Sequence record: NC_018854.1
Direction: 5' to 3' (one strand)
Source: Escherichia phage ECBP1
DNA: 64,000 nucleotides
The position numbers were made by a program, and so were the translations under genes. Positions 1 to 6,283 of the stretch are shown here, in pieces. Within the stretch, counting starts at the first letter, position 1; each line of letters begins with the position of its first letter. Below the pieces are notes generated by a model that was not told the origin of the DNA, did not search any database, and worked only from the letters and a program-made list of their open reading frames with translations.

Positions 1-2
1 CT

Positions 3-173
3 AAGGAAGTAATGGAGTTAGTGACCAAAGAAGGTAATAACTTCTCACTGGCTCACAAATATGACAAACGTGGGCGTACATATGCCTGTGGCTACCACAT
101 CAACTATCAGGGAACCAGTTACAACAAAGCTGTACTGGAGTTCGCTGATAAGGAGTTAGTAAATGAAGACTAA
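3..173 (+). CDS. 3' end of RNA polymerase II small-subunit gene (N4 gp15-like), truncated by window edge
   Basis: Open frame from window start to TAA at 171-173; translation ...DKRGRTYACGYHINYQGTSYNKAVLEF resembles the T7 RNAP 'DWRGRVYA..NPQG' region; sits directly upstream of the large-subunit gene. Confidence 0.5.
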   Translation, partial: KEVMELVTKEGNNFSLAHKYDKRGRTYACGYHINYQGTSYNKAVLEFADKELVNED

Positions 174-333
174 CATTGGCTCATATGAGCTATGGGTTAA
201 TGAAGAATGCGTTTACTCCGGTACATATGTGAAGTGCTTATACTTTGAAAAGCTTTACAAGCTTCAAAACCCTGAGAGTAAAACCATTATTTATAAACTA
301 TCTGCCGACGTAGTAACTGGCTAATCCATCCAA
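163..333 (+). CDS. small hypothetical protein (56 aa) between the two RNAP subunit genes
   Basis: ATG overlapping the upstream stop, 56 codons; not in ORF track (below length cutoff); no recognisable motif. Confidence 0.2.
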
Positions 334-381
334 TAAGCAGGCTCTCCATAGTGGGGAGCCAAGAAGCAAAAGGAACATAAA

Positions 382-1599
382 ATGCAACTGTTAACCGCTA
401 AACAATACCTGAAAGTAGATATCGCCAATAACTATGGTCTGGATAAAAAGACATGGGATGAGCGTATTGCCTGGTTCGATGAGAACGAAGCTAACCTGCT
501 TAATCTGGTAGATGAAGCTGAAGATTCTGCACTGTTCTATGCTGGTGTAAATGCATGGAAAGATATGAAAGCAGGTAAGCCTATTGGTTATGCCGTAGCT
601 CTGGATGCTACATCATCTGGCTTGCAATTACTGGCTTGTCTGACGGGTGACCGCTCTGCTGCTGAACTGTGTAACGTAGTTAATTACATGGGTGAGAATG
701 GTAAGCCATTACGTCGTGATGCTTATACAGTCATCTATCACAAGATGTTGGACATCCTTGGTGAAGCATCTCGTATTAAACGTAGTGACACTAAGCAGGC
801 AGTTATGACTGCGTTCTACGGCTCAGAAGCCAAGCCTAAAGAAGTATTCGGTGAAGGTATTCGTCTCAAGACTTTTGAGAATGTAATGGAAACTGTTGCT
901 AGTGGTCCTTGGGCATTGAACAAGTTCTTACTGCAATGTGGTAATCCAGATGCCAACCGTTACATATGGATACTTCCTGACAACTTCCACGCTGTCATTA
1001 AGGTCATGGTTCCAGAAGTACAGACTGTTAACTTCTTAGGCAAACCGTTCGACATTACTCGTATGGTTCAGGGTACTGAAGAGAAGACTCGTATGCTCTC
1101 TGCTAACATCACCCACTCTATTGATGGGATGGTGGTACGTGAGATGCTGCGTCGTTGTAACTTCGACCGTGACTTAGTGGAAGCTGTGCGAGAACTCTGC
1201 GATGAAGGTCCATCAGAATATGGGGAGATTGCAGGTAATCTGGAGAAGGTACAAGAGCTATGGAGCCATTATGAGAAGTCTGGCTTCTTATCTTTATCCA
1301 TCCTGGACTATCTTGACCCATGTACTATTGCTTATGTAGACCGTCAGGTAGTAGCAGATATGATTGACACTCTGCCTAAGAAACCATTCCCTGTAATGAC
1401 TGTACATGACTGCTTCCGTTGCCATCCTAACTACGGTAATGACCTGCGTCGTCAGTACAATCAGATCCTGTCTGATATTGCTAAGAGTGACCTACTGGGC
1501 TTCATCCTGTCTCAGGTACTGGGGCAAGAGTTCTCTGCTGGTAAGCTGGATGACAGCCTCTGGCAGGACATTCTTGAAACAGACTATGCGTTGAGTTAA
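382..1599 (+). CDS. RNA polymerase II large subunit (T7-like single-subunit RNAP catalytic half, N4 gp16-like)
   Basis: 405 aa; 'GKPIG', 'DATSSGLQ' (cf. T7 'DGSCSGIQH') and C-terminal 'VHDCF' (motif C-like HD) in T7 RNAP order. Confidence 0.8.
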   Translation: MQLLTAKQYLKVDIANNYGLDKKTWDERIAWFDENEANLLNLVDEAEDSALFYAGVNAWKDMKAGKPIGYAVALDATSSGLQLLACLTGDRSAAELCNVVNYMGENGKPLRRDAYTVIYHKMLDILGEASRIKRSDTKQAVMTAFYGSEAKPKEVFGEGIRLKTFENVMETVASGPWALNKFLLQCGNPDANRYIWILPDNFHAVIKVMVPEVQTVNFLGKPFDITRMVQGTEEKTRMLSANITHSIDGMVVREMLRRCNFDRDLVEAVRELCDEGPSEYGEIAGNLEKVQELWSHYEKSGFLSLSILDYLDPCTIAYVDRQVVADMIDTLPKKPFPVMTVHDCFRCHPNYGNDLRRQYNQILSDIAKSDLLGFILSQVLGQEFSAGKLDDSLWQDILETDYALS

Positions 1600-1606
1600 T
1601 AAACTA

Positions 1607-1639
1607 GCCTCATTCCTTCGGGAGTGAGGCATATTTTTT
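1607..1639 (+). terminator. intrinsic terminator after RNAP II gene
   Basis: GCCTCATTCC-ttcg-GGAGTGAGGC stem-loop followed by ATATTTTTT. Confidence 0.7.
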
Positions 1640-1656
1640 GCTTGGAGGTAACAACT

Positions 1657-1839
1657 ATGCTAATCCCTTTTGAAGTAATCTCTCAGTTAATACTGATAGT
1701 TTTATCTGTACTGGTTCTGTCTACAATAGTTCATGCCCACAAATCTAAGTTTGCTTATTACTACTATGGAGCATACTCACTAGGCTGCTTTGTAATGGCA
1801 GGATGGATAGCTTTTGCTATCTACTGTGTAAACAACTAA
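1657..1839 (+). CDS. small membrane protein (about 60 aa, two hydrophobic segments)
   Basis: ATG at 1657 preceded by GGAGG; track ORF start at 1624 lies inside the upstream terminator so internal start preferred; hydrophobic LILIVLSVLVL and FVMAGWIAFAIY. Confidence 0.5.
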   Translation: MLIPFEVISQLILIVLSVLVLSTIVHAHKSKFAYYYYGAYSLGCFVMAGWIAFAIYCVNN

Positions 1840-1866
1840 CCCTCCTAACGGAGGGTTTATTTTTTT
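1840..1866 (+). terminator. intrinsic terminator
   Basis: CCCTCC-taac-GGAGGG followed by TTTATTTTTTT. Confidence 0.7.
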
Positions 1867-1913
1867 ACATGTCATGTATACTAACTCTGCTATTTACTTA
1901 TGAGGAAATTGAT

Positions 1914-2747
1914 ATGCCAACTTTGAAAGTAGGTTTTAACAAAACCACTAATGTTGCAACTGTACTGGATGCCAGTGGTTCTATCCCAGGTGGTTCCGTA
2001 GAAGTAGGAACCTTTGTACACCCAGATGCCACTTACCCTGATAGCTTAGTTATCTTCCATGGTGTTCGTGACCTGCTGTATAAACGCTCTGCTAAAGATC
2101 CTTCTAAAGAAGGCTTCTGGCCTAACAACATCGTGGATATGCAGTCTATCTCTATTGATATGAAAGCTACTCCACGACTGACTATTGCTACCAAACTGCC
2201 TCGTGTAGTCTCTACTATCGAAGGTGAAGACATCAACTGGCACGTTGATGTAGCAGGTGGGAAAGCACCATTTACTTATAAATGGCAATTCAAAGCTGAT
2301 ACTGCTGGAGCAGCATTCGCTGATATTGATTCAGGTGAGAACGAATCCGCTGCTACTGCAACACTGACTCTTAATGACGTAACAGCTACTTCTGCTGGTA
2401 CTTACAAAGTGATTGTTACTGATGCTAATGGAACCACGGTAGAGGATGAGTCACTATTAGCTGTAGGCTATTACGAAGCAAGTTCACTGGTAGCTACTCC
2501 TGATTCGCTGGCTCTGTCTGTTGCTGCTGATACAACTGCTGGTAAGACTGTAACAATTGTTGCTATGCCTGTTGGTTCATCTTCTGGTGCTTTATCTATC
2601 AAGACTGCTCCAGATTCTGGTCGTGCTACGGCTACCATTGCTGGTAACGTACTGACAGTTAAGCCAGTGGCTGCTGGTGATACTACTTCTGTAGTAGTTA
2701 CCAATGGTACGGTAGATATAACTATCCCTGTTACTGTTGCAGAATAA
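1914..2747 (+). CDS. Ser/Thr/Ala-rich beta-rich (Ig-like) protein; possible capsid decoration protein (N4 gp17-like by position)
   Basis: ATG at 1914 with upstream GAGG; repeated T/A/V-rich stretches (TATLTLNDVTATSAGTYKVIVTDANGT) typical of Ig-like folds; located just after RNAP II genes. Confidence 0.45.
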   Translation: MPTLKVGFNKTTNVATVLDASGSIPGGSVEVGTFVHPDATYPDSLVIFHGVRDLLYKRSAKDPSKEGFWPNNIVDMQSISIDMKATPRLTIATKLPRVVSTIEGEDINWHVDVAGGKAPFTYKWQFKADTAGAAFADIDSGENESAATATLTLNDVTATSAGTYKVIVTDANGTTVEDESLLAVGYYEASSLVATPDSLALSVAADTTAGKTVTIVAMPVGSSSGALSIKTAPDSGRATATIAGNVLTVKPVAAGDTTSVVVTNGTVDITIPVTVAE

Positions 2748-2797
2748 GGGTATTCTTTGTTTGGGGTTATAAACCCTGAGATAAAACCCTCAAGTTT

Positions 2798-2827
2798 GAC
2801 CTCCCTATTGAAGGGAGGTCTTTTTTT
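2798..2827 (+). terminator. intrinsic terminator
   Basis: GACCTCCC-tattgaa-GGGAGGTC followed by TTTTTTT. Confidence 0.7.
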
Positions 2828-2852
2828 GACTTAAGCATCCTGGAGCCAGGAA

Positions 2853-3041
2853 ATGTACAAAGAAATTGCATTCTTCTCATTCTTATTAGGTGGTTTAATA
2901 GGTGCAGGATTTGTAGCTATTTCTAATACCTACTTTGGTTCTACTCCAAATTCTGTAACGCAAACCCTCAAGCATGAATGTGAATTGAATATTCCTCGTA
3001 ATCAAAACTGTGTAATGCAGTTCGTACCGGAGAAGAAATGA
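2853..3041 (+). CDS. hypothetical small membrane protein
   Basis: 62-aa ORF; hydrophobic N-terminus FFSFLLGGLIGAGFVAI; stop overlaps next start. Confidence 0.4.
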   Translation: MYKEIAFFSFLLGGLIGAGFVAISNTYFGSTPNSVTQTLKHECELNIPRNQNCVMQFVPEKK

Positions 3042-3298
3042 ATATCCACAATCTACATTTGGTTGAGAAACTGTATGAAGAATACAACAACAACCGACAA
3101 CAATTAGCTAGTTTGAAGAAGTCACCACATATGGTGAAAGTATCATTCAATGGTACGGATTTAGGACCACAAGCCCGTACAAGAATACTTCCTGGACTAC
3201 TGTCCTTTTATCAAAGGAGGGTTGCTGTTTTAGAGAAACGCTTTGAACATTTAGGTGTAGATTTATCACCACTTCCAGATGAAGGAGAAGAGGGATGA
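3038..3298 (+). CDS. hypothetical protein
   Basis: 86-aa ORF in tightly coupled (ATGA-overlap) gene series. Confidence 0.4.
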   Translation: MNIHNLHLVEKLYEEYNNNRQQLASLKKSPHMVKVSFNGTDLGPQARTRILPGLLSFYQRRVAVLEKRFEHLGVDLSPLPDEGEEG

Positions 3299-3504
3299 AA
3301 GTAACAAATCGTTCTGAGAACAATGAGGTAACTTTCGGTGATGTGGAGCCTGCTAATGGTTTTATTTATAACCAGACAGTGTGTTTAAAGATTCACTTAC
3401 CTGATGGTAAACCTGCTGCTGTTGCTGTAGAAACTGGTAAATCATTCTGTCTATCTGCAAGTACATTCGTAACACCAATAAACCTGGAAGGATATTACCT
3501 TTGA
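3295..3504 (+). CDS. hypothetical protein
   Basis: 69-aa ORF, start overlaps upstream stop. Confidence 0.4.
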   Translation: MKVTNRSENNEVTFGDVEPANGFIYNQTVCLKIHLPDGKPAAVAVETGKSFCLSASTFVTPINLEGYYL

Positions 3505-3686
3505 AATTAACACAGTCCCAAGCAATCTTCCTTCGTATGGTTCAAGGTGGCTCTGCCACCAGCAACCGTAATAACAAAACCGCACAGTCTCTTAAGAAGC
3601 TGGGCTTAGTACAGTTCAATGCTGGTCTTGGGTGGTCATTAACCCCTATCGGTGTACTTAAACTCAATGAATTAAAAGGTAACTAA
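3501..3686 (+). CDS. hypothetical protein
   Basis: 61-aa ORF, start overlaps upstream stop. Confidence 0.4.
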   Translation: MKLTQSQAIFLRMVQGGSATSNRNNKTAQSLKKLGLVQFNAGLGWSLTPIGVLKLNELKGN

Positions 3687-4016
3687 ATGAAAACTTTATT
3701 TAAAGGTATTGCAGTAGCTGCACTGATAGCTTTGGCTCCAAATGCACAAGCTATTGAACCAGAACCAATTTTGGAAGGTGCTCAGGCTTATCTGGACAAC
3801 ACCCATGATGAGTTCGGACAAGGATTCTTCATGGGCAGTATGATCTCTTACATCGAGAACACAAATAACTGTGTTCCAGATGGTATGAAGTATTCAGACA
3901 TTCTACCTAAGATTGCCAAAGTAGTTATTTATGACTCTGCAATCCTCAAACTGAAGAATACATCTCAAATTGTTGTGTACTCAGTACACAAGGCGTATCC
4001 CTGCACTAAATCTTAA
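3687..4016 (+). CDS. secreted/periplasmic protein with cleavable signal peptide
   Basis: N-terminus MKTLFKGIAVAALIALAPNAQA has n/h/c regions and AxA cleavage motif. Confidence 0.5.
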   Translation: MKTLFKGIAVAALIALAPNAQAIEPEPILEGAQAYLDNTHDEFGQGFFMGSMISYIENTNNCVPDGMKYSDILPKIAKVVIYDSAILKLKNTSQIVVYSVHKAYPCTKS

Positions 4017-4050: not shown

Positions 4051-5103
4051 ATGGCAAGCATTGACTCCTTGACTGTATGTAATTCACGTCAAGCTCGTAA
4101 CTTTATTATTCGTGCCCTGAAAGCAGGTAACGTACCATTCCTGACTTCATCACCTGGCATGGGTAAATCTGCAATCATTCGTTCTATTGCAGAAGAATTT
4201 GGTATGAAGTTGATAGATCATCGTCTGTCTACTTCTGCCCCAGAAGATCTTTCTGGTCTACCATTCCGTAATGGTGACCGTGCAGAGTTTATTCCATTCG
4301 CTGATTTATTCCCTATTGAAGGGGATGAAGTACCAGAAGGTTATAATGGCTGGCTCCTGTTCCTTGATGAGTTCAACTCAGCTAAGAAAGAAGTAGTAGC
4401 TGCTGCATACAAACTAATTCTCGACCGTATGACTGGTCAGAAAAAACTTCATCCTAATGTGATGATTGTCTGTGCTGGTAACAAAGCTACTGACCGTGCC
4501 ATTGTTAATCCTCTGGGTACTGCAATGCAGTCTCGTGTGGTTCACTTTGAAATGGAACTTAACTTCGACATCTTTGTTGAAGATGTAATGATTCCTCAAC
4601 AATGGGATGAACGTCTGGTTGCATTTCTACATGCTAACCCAGGTTATCTGCATGACTTCGACCCAGCCCATAAGAACAAAACATTCTGTTGCCCTCGTAC
4701 TTGGGACTTTGTTAACAAAGACCTTAAGAATCAGCCGGAAGGTGCTCTTCCTGATGAAGATTCTATCTACTATGCAGGTCACGTTACTGCTGGTAAGGCT
4801 ACAGAATTTGTTCAGTTTACCCAGGTATATAATCGTATGATTACGATTGAGAAGGTAGTCAAAGACCCTATGGGTTGTGCACTACCAGAAGATAACAACC
4901 TGTGTTGGGCTACCGTTAACCATCTAGCTAACAAAACTACTGAAGAGAACTTCGCTGATGTTCTTCAGTACATCGAACGCTTTAAAACGTTCACCCATAA
5001 GATTCTGTACTTCCGTACAGTAGGCAGAACATTACCAGAACTTCAGGCTACTCCTGAATGGCGTAAGGCTGCTGCTAATATCTCTCGTTACATTCACGGA
5101 TAA
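4051..5103 (+). CDS. AAA+ ATPase, MoxR-like
   Basis: Walker A SSPGMGKS, Walker B LFLDEFN; 350 aa; immediately followed by vWA partner. Confidence 0.8.
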   Translation: MASIDSLTVCNSRQARNFIIRALKAGNVPFLTSSPGMGKSAIIRSIAEEFGMKLIDHRLSTSAPEDLSGLPFRNGDRAEFIPFADLFPIEGDEVPEGYNGWLLFLDEFNSAKKEVVAAAYKLILDRMTGQKKLHPNVMIVCAGNKATDRAIVNPLGTAMQSRVVHFEMELNFDIFVEDVMIPQQWDERLVAFLHANPGYLHDFDPAHKNKTFCCPRTWDFVNKDLKNQPEGALPDEDSIYYAGHVTAGKATEFVQFTQVYNRMITIEKVVKDPMGCALPEDNNLCWATVNHLANKTTEENFADVLQYIERFKTFTHKILYFRTVGRTLPELQATPEWRKAAANISRYIHG

Positions 5104-5107
5104 AACA

Positions 5108-6283
5108 ATGAACCAATTTCCTCAGCACACACTTAGTGATGAACAACTCATGCGCGAATATGACCGTATTCAGGCGCAGGCGTTTCTCGGACGCAGTGCT
5201 GCCTTCTTTGGTTCATTACTATGTAGTCTTAAATTCTCATGGAAACGTGAGGATTGTCCCACTGCATGTACTGATGGGATAGAACTCCATTTCAACCCAG
5301 ACTTCTTTATCTGGATGTGTCCAGATGCAAGGGAAACAGTATTAATGCATGAACTATGGCATGTGGCATATCTACATGACATCCGTCGTGGAAGCCGTGA
5401 CCCGGAAGTCTGGAACCAGGCATGTGACCACTTCATTAACCTTCAGTTAGAGGAGGATGGTTACAAGTTCACTGGTATTAATGAAGGCATTTGCAAAGAC
5501 CCTCAATATAAAGGATGGGTCGAAGAAGACATCTACGATGACCTGATGAAGAACCCTCAGAAAAGGCAGAAGCCGTCAGGGGGTGCTGGAGCAGGTCTTG
5601 CTGGCGACATGAAATCCCCCACTTCGGGACAGTCCCAGGGTGCTGTCGTCAACAACGTAGTACGTGCAATGCAGAGCCAGAAGATGGCTGGTGGAACAAT
5701 GCCCGGTAAGGGTGCTGGTCGTATGGAAGAGGTTATTACCCAATTCCTTAAACCAGTGGTTCCATGGCAAGAAGTACTCATGAACTTCTTTACCGACATT
5801 GATGACACTCACTATACGTGGGCCAGACCTAACCGTCGTTACACTGACATTTATCTACCTTCCCTGGAAGATGATGAAGGACGTCTACGACACCTAGCCT
5901 ACTTTGAGGATGTATCTGGTTCTATTAGTAGTGCTGACTCTCTGCGTTTTAACTCAGAGGTTGCCTACGTTAAGAGTCAATTCAATCCTAAGAAGATGAC
6001 CCTAATCACCTTCGACGATGTTATCCAGGAAGAAATAGACATCACTGAAGAAGATACTTTCGAAGAGATTAAGATTACTGGACGTGGTGGTACAAACCTG
6101 GAACCAGTACGCGAATGGATTATTAAGAATAAGCCAACCGCTGCAATCATATTCTCTGATATGTATGTTCGTCCAATGGAAGAATTGCCATTTGATATTC
6201 CTATCATCTGGTGTGTTCTGAATAATCCTAATGCTACCGTACCTTTTGGGGAGGTAGTTCATATCCCTAAAGGAATGAAATAA
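5108..6283 (+). CDS. vWA-domain protein with N-terminal HExxH putative metallopeptidase-like domain (MoxR partner)
   Basis: 'MHELWHVAYLHD' HExxH motif; Gly-rich linker; C-terminal vWA-like region; canonical pairing with upstream MoxR ATPase. Confidence 0.7.
   Translation: MNQFPQHTLSDEQLMREYDRIQAQAFLGRSAAFFGSLLCSLKFSWKREDCPTACTDGIELHFNPDFFIWMCPDARETVLMHELWHVAYLHDIRRGSRDPEVWNQACDHFINLQLEEDGYKFTGINEGICKDPQYKGWVEEDIYDDLMKNPQKRQKPSGGAGAGLAGDMKSPTSGQSQGAVVNNVVRAMQSQKMAGGTMPGKGAGRMEEVITQFLKPVVPWQEVLMNFFTDIDDTHYTWARPNRRYTDIYLPSLEDDEGRLRHLAYFEDVSGSISSADSLRFNSEVAYVKSQFNPKKMTLITFDDVIQEEIDITEEDTFEEIKITGRGGTNLEPVREWIIKNKPTAAIIFSDMYVRPMEELPFDIPIIWCVLNNPNATVPFGEVVHIPKGMK

Follow-up and report, generated by a model that had tools for sequence, protein, structure and literature searches.

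An orphan gene and a leader hairpin between the two RNA polymerase II genes of Escherichia phage ECBP1

Overview of the locus

The DNA analyzed here, a stretch of 64,000 nucleotides (nt) of Escherichia phage ECBP1 (sequence record NC_018854.1; hereafter the window), opens within a T7-like RNA polymerase (RNAP) encoded by two genes. On the + strand, the end of the first subunit gene, RNAP1 (positions 3-173), is followed by an open reading frame (ORF) of 53 codons (ORF53, 163-324), a 57-nt leader carrying a hairpin (325-381), and the gene of the second subunit, RNAP2 (382-1599). With a probability of about 0.85, the locus is the RNA polymerase II (RNAPII) operon of a G7C/Bp4-like coliphage of the N4 type, in which a passenger gene occupies a variable slot between the subunit genes and a hairpin lies in the leader of RNAP2. 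The first-pass annotation of this DNA had described a T7-like RNAP in two genes with a small ORF between them; these features are present, and the alignments with N4 RNAP2 and T7 RNAP agree with that description.

Bases 1-4000 of the window have about 96% identity over their full length to Escherichia phages PD38 and Bp4, with which they share the gene order. They match 64 phage records, 59 of which are Escherichia/Shigella phage or Gamaleyavirus genomes and five of which are named Klebsiella phages; the taxonomy of the fetched relatives is Schitoviridae, Enquatrovirinae, Gamaleyavirus. The IMG/VR contig UViG_2595698805_000001 is identical to the window, which begins at contig position 5856. 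By sequence similarity the window is thus assigned to a G7C/Bp4-like N4-type coliphage of the genus Gamaleyavirus.

The split RNA polymerase

Bases 3-173 (+ strand, frame 3) hold the last 56 codons and the stop codon of RNAP1, a homolog of N4 gp15, as judged from the translation, the profile alignment, and the RNAP1 annotation of the homologous gene in PD38 and Bp4. The gene continues past the left end of the window; its complete form, encoding 272 amino acids (aa), was found in a contig identical to the window (L014) and in PD38. The translated tail, ...HKYDKRGRTYACGYHINYQGTSYNKAVLEFADKELVNED, contains HKYDKRGRTYACGYHINYQGTS and ends with EFADKELVNED. Its T/DxxGR motif is DKRGR (reading DKRGRTYA). 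In the profile alignment, positions 131-270 of the full-length RNAP1 homolog profile correspond to residues 270-448 of T7 RNAP, with a weak score and the motif in register, so that DKRGRTY faces T7 DWRGRVY (D421-WRGRVY); the upstream partial ORF does carry the T7 DxRGRxYA region noticed in the first-pass annotation.

RNAP2 (382-1599, + strand) is a homolog of N4 gp16; its 405 aa make up the palm and fingers domains, in which motifs A, B, and C lie. It matches chain B of the N4 RNAPII structure (PDB 6DT7) end-to-end (residues 1-405 against 1-404, E = 1.2e-187) and the Pfam family RNA_pol (PF00940, E = 5.5e-14), while its residues 9-94, motif A included, align with T7 RNAP 459-556 (hhalign, 90.6% probability). 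Motif A starts at residue 75 (DATSSGLQ, compared with T7 DGSCSGIQ), motif B, RSDTKQAVMTAFYGS, at residue 134, and motif C (HDCF) occupies residues 342-345. About 60 residues follow motif C, as in T7, and the ORF therefore does not end with this motif, contrary to what had been proposed. The likeness of its start to T7 was also only partly borne out: motif A corresponds to that of T7, but the GKPIG sequence does not. In RNAP2 the latter comprises residues 65-69, just ahead of motif A, whereas in T7 it comprises residues 449-453, exactly at the break; because the two are not counterparts, the resemblance is a coincidence.

The two subunits cover adjacent, non-overlapping stretches of T7 RNAP. 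As RNAP1 corresponds to T7 residues 270-448 and RNAP2 to residues 459-556, the break, as predicted at first pass, is placed by the profile alignments within one T7 polypeptide, at approximately residues 449-458. RNAP1 and RNAP2 are accordingly predicted to be the two subunits of a heterodimeric T7-family polymerase of the N4 RNAPII type. With the N4 enzyme (PDB 6DT7/6DT8/6DTA) the ECBP1 locus shares the two-gene split at the same point, the full-length RNAP2 match, the RNAP1 end with the DKRGRTY...EFA motif region, the early-region context, and the downstream genes for gp17 (Hoc-like), gp24 (ATPase), and gp25. N4 RNAPII is a gp15/gp16 heterodimer for which the distribution of motifs between the subunits has been described; it is an early product, transcribes the middle genes along with gp1 and gp2, and transcribes single-stranded DNA together with gp2, a single-stranded DNA-binding cofactor (PMC4496689). 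Transcription of single-stranded DNA by a heterodimer with a gp2-type cofactor has been reported for LUZ7 as well (PMC7145618). By homology with N4, the ECBP1 heterodimer would be active in the same way and would transcribe middle genes. The junction itself differs: in N4, gp15 and gp16 are only 47 nt apart and the spacer has a 4-bp (base pair) hairpin, while in ECBP1 a 53-codon gene precedes the spacer and the stem has 8-9 bp.

The 53-codon gene

ORF53 (163-324, + strand) consists of 53 codons and a stop codon, not of 56 codons as listed at first pass. It overlaps the end of RNAP1, stop codon included, by 11 nt, and belongs to phrog_15352, a family of unknown function. The gene was found in 22 phage records; homologs in Bp4 (orf79), PD38, St11Ph5, IME11 (IME11_61), and U1G (gp17) occupy the same place, share 62-98% protein identity, and are annotated as hypothetical. 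IME11, together with 24-32N, differs in having an extra 79-aa gene behind the 53-aa gene, with 27 nt of the RNAP1 3' end duplicated ahead of it, and U1G differs in having a short form of the leader hairpin.

The first-pass annotation had suggested checking the conservation of this ORF. Across lineages its length is exactly 53 codons, and the ratio of non-synonymous to synonymous substitution rates (dN/dS) is 0.03-0.28 with dS up to 1.5. Compared with the PD38 copy there are eight synonymous changes and one non-synonymous change, and the U1G copy, only 62% identical, still gives a dN/dS of 0.28. The alignment contains 24 invariant columns, among them the 13 N-terminal residues. The AF2 model is a compact strand-strand-helix-strand fold with a mean pLDDT of 85.5. 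Given the purifying selection, conserved length, strong ribosome-binding site (see below), and confident predicted fold, ORF53 is a genuine gene.

It is also an orphan. No Pfam family was matched, and phrog_15352 was the only match in PHROGs. A word-indexed search of 5.8 billion proteins returned five clusters, all of the gene's own family, and a full hidden Markov model search of 1.84 billion representatives gave two real matches, one of them a new homolog, along with two spurious repeat matches. The sole divergent homolog, P0006 (47 aa), is likewise encoded between RNAP1 and RNAP2; ORF53 thus represents a tiny family found only in this slot. A Foldseek search of PDB with the AF2 model yielded nothing significant (best E ~1). 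BLASTP comparison with all slot proteins, six HNH proteins among them, showed no similarity to the slot endonucleases, and ORF53 lacks the nuclease domain (HNH, GIY-YIG, or LAGLIDADG) that defines a homing endonuclease cassette. The polymerase does not require ORF53, since N4 and EC1-UPM are without it. Most likely, if tentatively, its product would be an early accessory protein of the host-takeover or counter-defence type.

A second slot family, with the N-terminal pattern M-N-x-K-Y-E-L-W and a length of 55-57 aa, was observed at two loci (L054, 2317-2644; L027, 1787-1954); at the former, the YELW-type gene has a divergent copy of the 53-aa gene as its tandem neighbor. ORF53 and the 55/57-aa KYELW proteins both have YELW at their start and resemble each other in predicted layout, and hhalign gives a probability of 42% over 14 columns, which is suggestive of the two families being distant paralogs; they may be so.

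The variable slot between RNAP1 and RNAP2

The arrangement differs from two simply adjacent genes, as the first-pass annotation had stated, and it has been published. Amgarten et al. (2017; PMC5418858) distinguished three organizations of this polymerase: T7-type, N4-type with adjacent genes, and G7C-type with 0-8 spacer genes; a homing endonuclease was proposed there as the cause of the original split. ECBP1 belongs to the same genus as G7C and has a gene under purifying selection and unrelated to RNAP, ORF53, between RNAP1 and RNAP2, and is thus of the G7C type. In G7C itself, however, the gene of a 193-aa HNH/NUMOD1 homing endonuclease reaches the RNAP2 start, with the leader hairpin overwritten, whereas ECBP1 has the 53-aa orphan and an intact leader.

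The Gamaleyavirus junction occurs in at least six states: empty (EC1-UPM, phi G17); with the 53-aa gene (the 22 records mentioned above); with a 79-aa gene (ZQ2 and others); with the 53-aa and 79-aa genes together (IME11, 24-32N); with 38-aa and 80-aa genes (E20); or with one of several HNH endonucleases (G7C, pSb-1, UE-M6, and others). In metagenomic loci from IMG/VR, the gap between RNAP1 and RNAP2 measures 1-1845 bp in the 25 of 38 in which the RNAP1 end could be located; in the other 13, none was found within 2 kb upstream. Altogether, four or more small-ORF families were counted in the slot, besides several types of HNH endonuclease. The 79-aa family is also present in unrelated jumbo, Acinetobacter, Rhizobium, and Vibrio phages, and the slot occupants are therefore passengers rather than parts of the polymerase.

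The ends of the slot are well defined. The ATG of ORF53 (position 163) lies inside the final RNAP1 codons AAT GAA GAC TAA, and its perfect Shine-Dalgarno sequence AAGGAG (150-155, + strand), 7 nt before the ATG, is formed by RNAP1 Lys-Glu codons. In loci where a small ORF overlaps the RNAP1 end, these codons read AAG GAG (in one, AAG GAA), whereas empty-slot EC1-UPM and N4, as well as loci where an HNH gene follows RNAP1, have the synonymous AAA GAA; in loci with an HNH gene that begins at the RNAP1 stop or at most 3 nt past it, GAGGA is found in the Glu-Asp codons instead. Synonymous codon choice writes the ribosome-binding site and start of ORF53 into RNAP1, and ORF53 would therefore probably be translated by ribosomes completing RNAP1. 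At the left end, the start of the first inserted gene coincides with the RNAP1 stop or lies no more than 3 nt from it in the loci of the subfamily that were examined. On the right, wherever a locus of the subfamily keeps the leader, 44-57 nt separate the end of the last slot gene from RNAP2; where the leader is missing, this gene either stops 1 nt short of the RNAP2 start codon (G7C) or extends into it (L026, L033). The TAA of ORF53 (322-324) holds the position of the RNAP1 stop in EC1-UPM, that is, of the ancestral stop. In IME11 (L006, 1825-1851) the 27-nt RNAP1 3'-end duplicate, GATAAGGAGCTAGTAAACGATGAGTAG, separates the 53-aa and 79-aa cassettes and supplies the second with its ribosome-binding site and start codon. 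This geometry suggests a chain of translationally coupled cistrons.

The cassette also has a history of its own. Between the window and PD38 (L001) there are 14 differences in positions 1-325 (4.3%) and two in 326-2000 (0.1%), with dS values of 0.30 for ORF53 and 0.004 for RNAP2; in the U1G-PhAPEC5 pair the respective values are 1.44 and 0.24. The contrast between the two intervals and between the dS values places a recombination breakpoint at the right edge of ORF53, and the mosaic boundary falls exactly at its stop codon, a placement that would be expected of an exchangeable cassette flanked by conserved sequence. Origin of the ORF53-only state by deletion from an IME11-like tandem, in which both cassettes end with ...GGCTAA, was considered and rejected, as the last codons ATC, GTC, GCC, and GGC fit point substitution.

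In several respects the cassette resembles intronless homing of the T4 type: it is inserted between two essential conserved genes, endonucleases occupy the same slot in sister phages, and mosaic divergence has its breakpoint at the cassette edge. Unlike in T4-type homing, the gene here has neither a nuclease domain nor any likeness to nucleases, and it is known here as a slot occupant, not as a homing gene.

The RNAP2 leader and its hairpin

The 57 nt between ORF53 and RNAP2 (325-381, + strand) form the right boundary of the slot and are identified, by comparison with EC1-UPM and N4 and by a covariance model, as the ancestral RNAP1-RNAP2 intercistronic spacer, here called the RNAP2 leader. It contains a stem-loop, GGCUCUCCA-UAG-UGGGGAGCC (340-360, + strand), of nine pairs, one of them G.U, closed by a UAG loop (eight pairs if the loop is taken as 5 nt), with a folding energy of -15.8 kcal/mol (z = -2.9 against shuffles). 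The Shine-Dalgarno sequence of RNAP2, AAGGA (370-374, + strand), lies 7 nt before the ATG at 382 and is conserved in the leader alignment.

A hairpin between the polymerase halves had been noticed at first pass; it is present, but spans 340-360 and is not part of the insertion. In EC1-UPM, which lacks a cassette, the RNAP1 stop is directly followed by this same sequence of 56-57 nt together with its hairpin. The homologous 47-nt spacer of N4 has a shorter hairpin, AGCC-AAUA-GGCU, between the flanks (A)AUGC and AAGANGC. By these comparisons the hairpin is assigned to the ancestral RNAP2 leader. Equivalent hairpins with different stems stand in the same place in N4, U1G, UE-M6, Moo19, VLCpiP4b, and metagenomic relatives, and the subfamily stem variants keep the pairing (GAGCC/GGCUC, GGGC/GCCC, GGUUU/GAACC, GUUCC/GGAAC). 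In an alignment of ten short-stem leaders with five pairs, 88% of cells are paired, three of the five pairs have changed on both sides, none of 500 shuffles reaches the covariation score, and sliding the 3' pairing partners by 1-3 columns gives a far lower score. The structure is thus supported by covariation. A covariance model trained without the window sequence recovers the leader at 332-374.

G.U pairs occur in two independent variants, and on the other strand they would be A.C mismatches; since they are tolerated only on the + strand, a function in + strand RNA is favored. Most likely the hairpin would act at the mRNA level and affect how the RNAP2 cistron is translated, coupled, or stabilized. 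A more specific possibility, which we put forward only tentatively, is that the leader, with its (A)ATGC/AAGANGC flanks and covarying stem-loop about 20 nt before RNAP2, is an mRNA element that passes ribosomes or a regulator to RNAP2 and so balances the subunits.

No Rfam 15 family matches within 325-381, even at E values up to 10. The covariance model found no convincing second copy of the leader in 120 kb (the 64-kb window, the N4 left end, and nine other related loci), and a survey of all strong hairpins in the window revealed no class with shared flanks. As an intrinsic terminator the hairpin was rejected: it is followed by AAGAAGCAAAAGG, without a T-run, and the terminator scan is silent at this place, reporting hairpins at 1607 and 1838 instead. 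In G7C (L003, 2200-2258) and in L026 and L033 (~1950-2001) the leader hairpin is degenerate or lost, with the ATGCG flank still recognizable in G7C; the endonuclease ORF appears to have been extended over the old leader in all three.

Transcription context and neighboring genes

Directly after RNAP2, the terminator scan and the sequence revealed an intrinsic-terminator-like hairpin of ten pairs followed by a T-run (1607-1640, + strand), which is likely to be the end of the RNAP1-ORF53-RNAP2 transcription unit. On the upstream side, which in the window is cut off, relatives have a hairpin of the N4 virion-RNAP early-promoter type about 45 nt before RNAP1, with a stem of 6-7 bp and a TCC loop, followed by TTGG. 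Such promoters were recognized by a 5-7 bp stem, a 3-nt loop, a central template-strand G (coding TCC), and conserved downstream sequence. The hairpin is present in PD38 (L001, 2307-2321), Bp4, EC1-UPM, U1G, Moo19, UE-M6, and N4 (L052, 4546-4562 and 557-573; N4 gp2 is preceded by this form as well), and in G7C and VLCpiP4b its stem carries compensatory changes. Given this promoter in relatives and the terminator at 1607-1640, RNAP1, ORF53, and RNAP2 look like one early transcription unit.

Farther downstream, a hydrophobic ORF of 60 aa (1657-1839; G7C gp16.1 family, phrog_12530) lies between the terminator-like hairpins with T-runs at 1607-1640 and 1838-1867 and forms a tiny, separately bracketed unit. 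A second variable slot follows the Hoc-like gene, at approximately 2800-2900, where PD38 and Bp4 have about 355 bp extra, holding an 86-aa hypothetical gene. The gp24-like AAA ATPase gene (4051-5103) and the gp25-like gene (5108-6283) are intact in the window, and their homologs in Bp4 are annotated in pieces with HNH genes among them; homing endonucleases therefore target other early/middle genes of the genus as well.

Alternative explanations

One competing explanation concerns the hairpin, which might be a DNA hairpin promoter, of the virion-RNAP early or the LUZ7 middle type, for a separate RNAP2 transcript starting at G363. N4-like phages do employ hairpin promoters, and relatives have a typical one upstream of RNAP1. 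In LUZ7, the middle promoters are GC-rich hairpins with a stem of at least 6 bp and a loop of 3-4 nt, and transcription starts at a G about 15 nt downstream of them (PMC9163698); in ECBP1 the loop center and G363 are 13 nt apart, and AAGANGC is conserved after the stem in all relatives. However, the known early hairpins of the N4 type have the TCC loop and TTGG, whereas here the loop is TAG and the relatives have A/T-rich loops of 4-5 nt, for which reason an N4 virion-RNAP promoter was rejected. In addition, the stem varies from 4 to 9 bp while the 3' flank is fixed to the stem base, so that the loop has no constant distance from the putative start; the stem in N4 is limited to 4 bp; on the template strand the G.U pairs would turn into A.C mismatches; searches of the window and of the N4 left end gave no second copy of the motif; and the promoters of N4 RNAPII are AT-rich and extend from -7 to +2 (PMC4496689). 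We consider a promoter unlikely. Equally unlikely, in our estimate, is that the ORF53 protein is a lineage-specific partner or regulator of RNAPII made in step with the subunits. The position of the gene, wedged between the subunit genes and apparently coupled to RNAP1 translation, would suit such a role, as would the confinement of the family to the slot, the purifying selection, and the confident fold. Yet the gp15-gp16 heterodimer of N4 is active and was crystallized although this phage has no ORF53, the gene is absent from most Gamaleyaviruses with RNAP subunits 82-98% identical, and the slot also holds unrelated genes, among them selfish endonucleases and the 79-aa family, so that a place in it is no proof of a polymerase function.

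Far less probable is a non-functional ORF53, either a chance ORF or the remnant of a decayed homing endonuclease gene. Such genes do occupy the slot in G7C, pSb-1, UE-M6, and others, and they are expected to decay once fixed (PMC5418858); but the low dN/dS at high dS, the 53-codon length kept across lineages, the invariant N-terminus, the strong ribosome-binding site, and the confident fold are at odds with decay, and neither similarity to slot endonucleases nor a match to a nuclease family was found. The probability that the two-gene state is an artefact, whether a frameshift, an assembly error, or an intron or intein hidden in a single gene, is negligible. The single chain of T7 is all that speaks for it; the same split stands at the same place in dozens of independent genomes (178 phage records match bases 1-700) and in those 25 of the 38 metagenomic loci with the RNAP1 end located, the N4 enzyme was purified and crystallized as two chains, and each gene has its own start codon and ribosome-binding site.

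We therefore keep to the RNAPII operon with a passenger gene in a variable slot and a hairpin in the RNAP2 leader, against which some observations have to be set. The covariation sample is small (ten related sequences and five pairs), the divergent Moo19 is offset in it by one column, and the long-stem variant was judged by eye. G7C, L026, and L033 do without the hairpin, the endonuclease ORF reaching the RNAP2 start, and the hairpin is therefore dispensable in some genomes. The argument for translational coupling is one of geometry. A Foldseek search of BFVD with the ORF53 model returned the U1G homolog and uncharacterized phage proteins only, which makes the function proposed for ORF53 a guess, and our literature search found no transcriptome or proteome of any Gamaleyavirus.

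Significance

As a discovery the locus carries small weight: the N4-type split polymerase is a model enzyme, its spaced G7C-type form with spacer genes has been published, and sister genomes already list the small gene as hypothetical. The additions made here are modest and comprise the recognition of ORF53 as a genuine orphan gene confined to the slot, the precise slot architecture, and the conserved, covarying hairpin of the RNAP2 leader, of which no earlier description was found. Annotations should retain the small ORF, which is a real and probably early gene and an orphan, and should attribute the hairpin to the RNAP2 leader and not to the insertion. If the leader does hand ribosomes or a regulator over to RNAP2, this would explain the shape of the slot, in which the first gene stands near the RNAP1 stop and the last either spares the leader or ends on the RNAP2 start. 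Passenger genes and homing endonucleases have a well-defined landing slot in the RNAP1-RNAP2 junction, which makes it convenient to search there for accessory genes of N4-like phages, possibly with counter-defence roles, and natural to use the site for engineered insertions that are to be expressed early.

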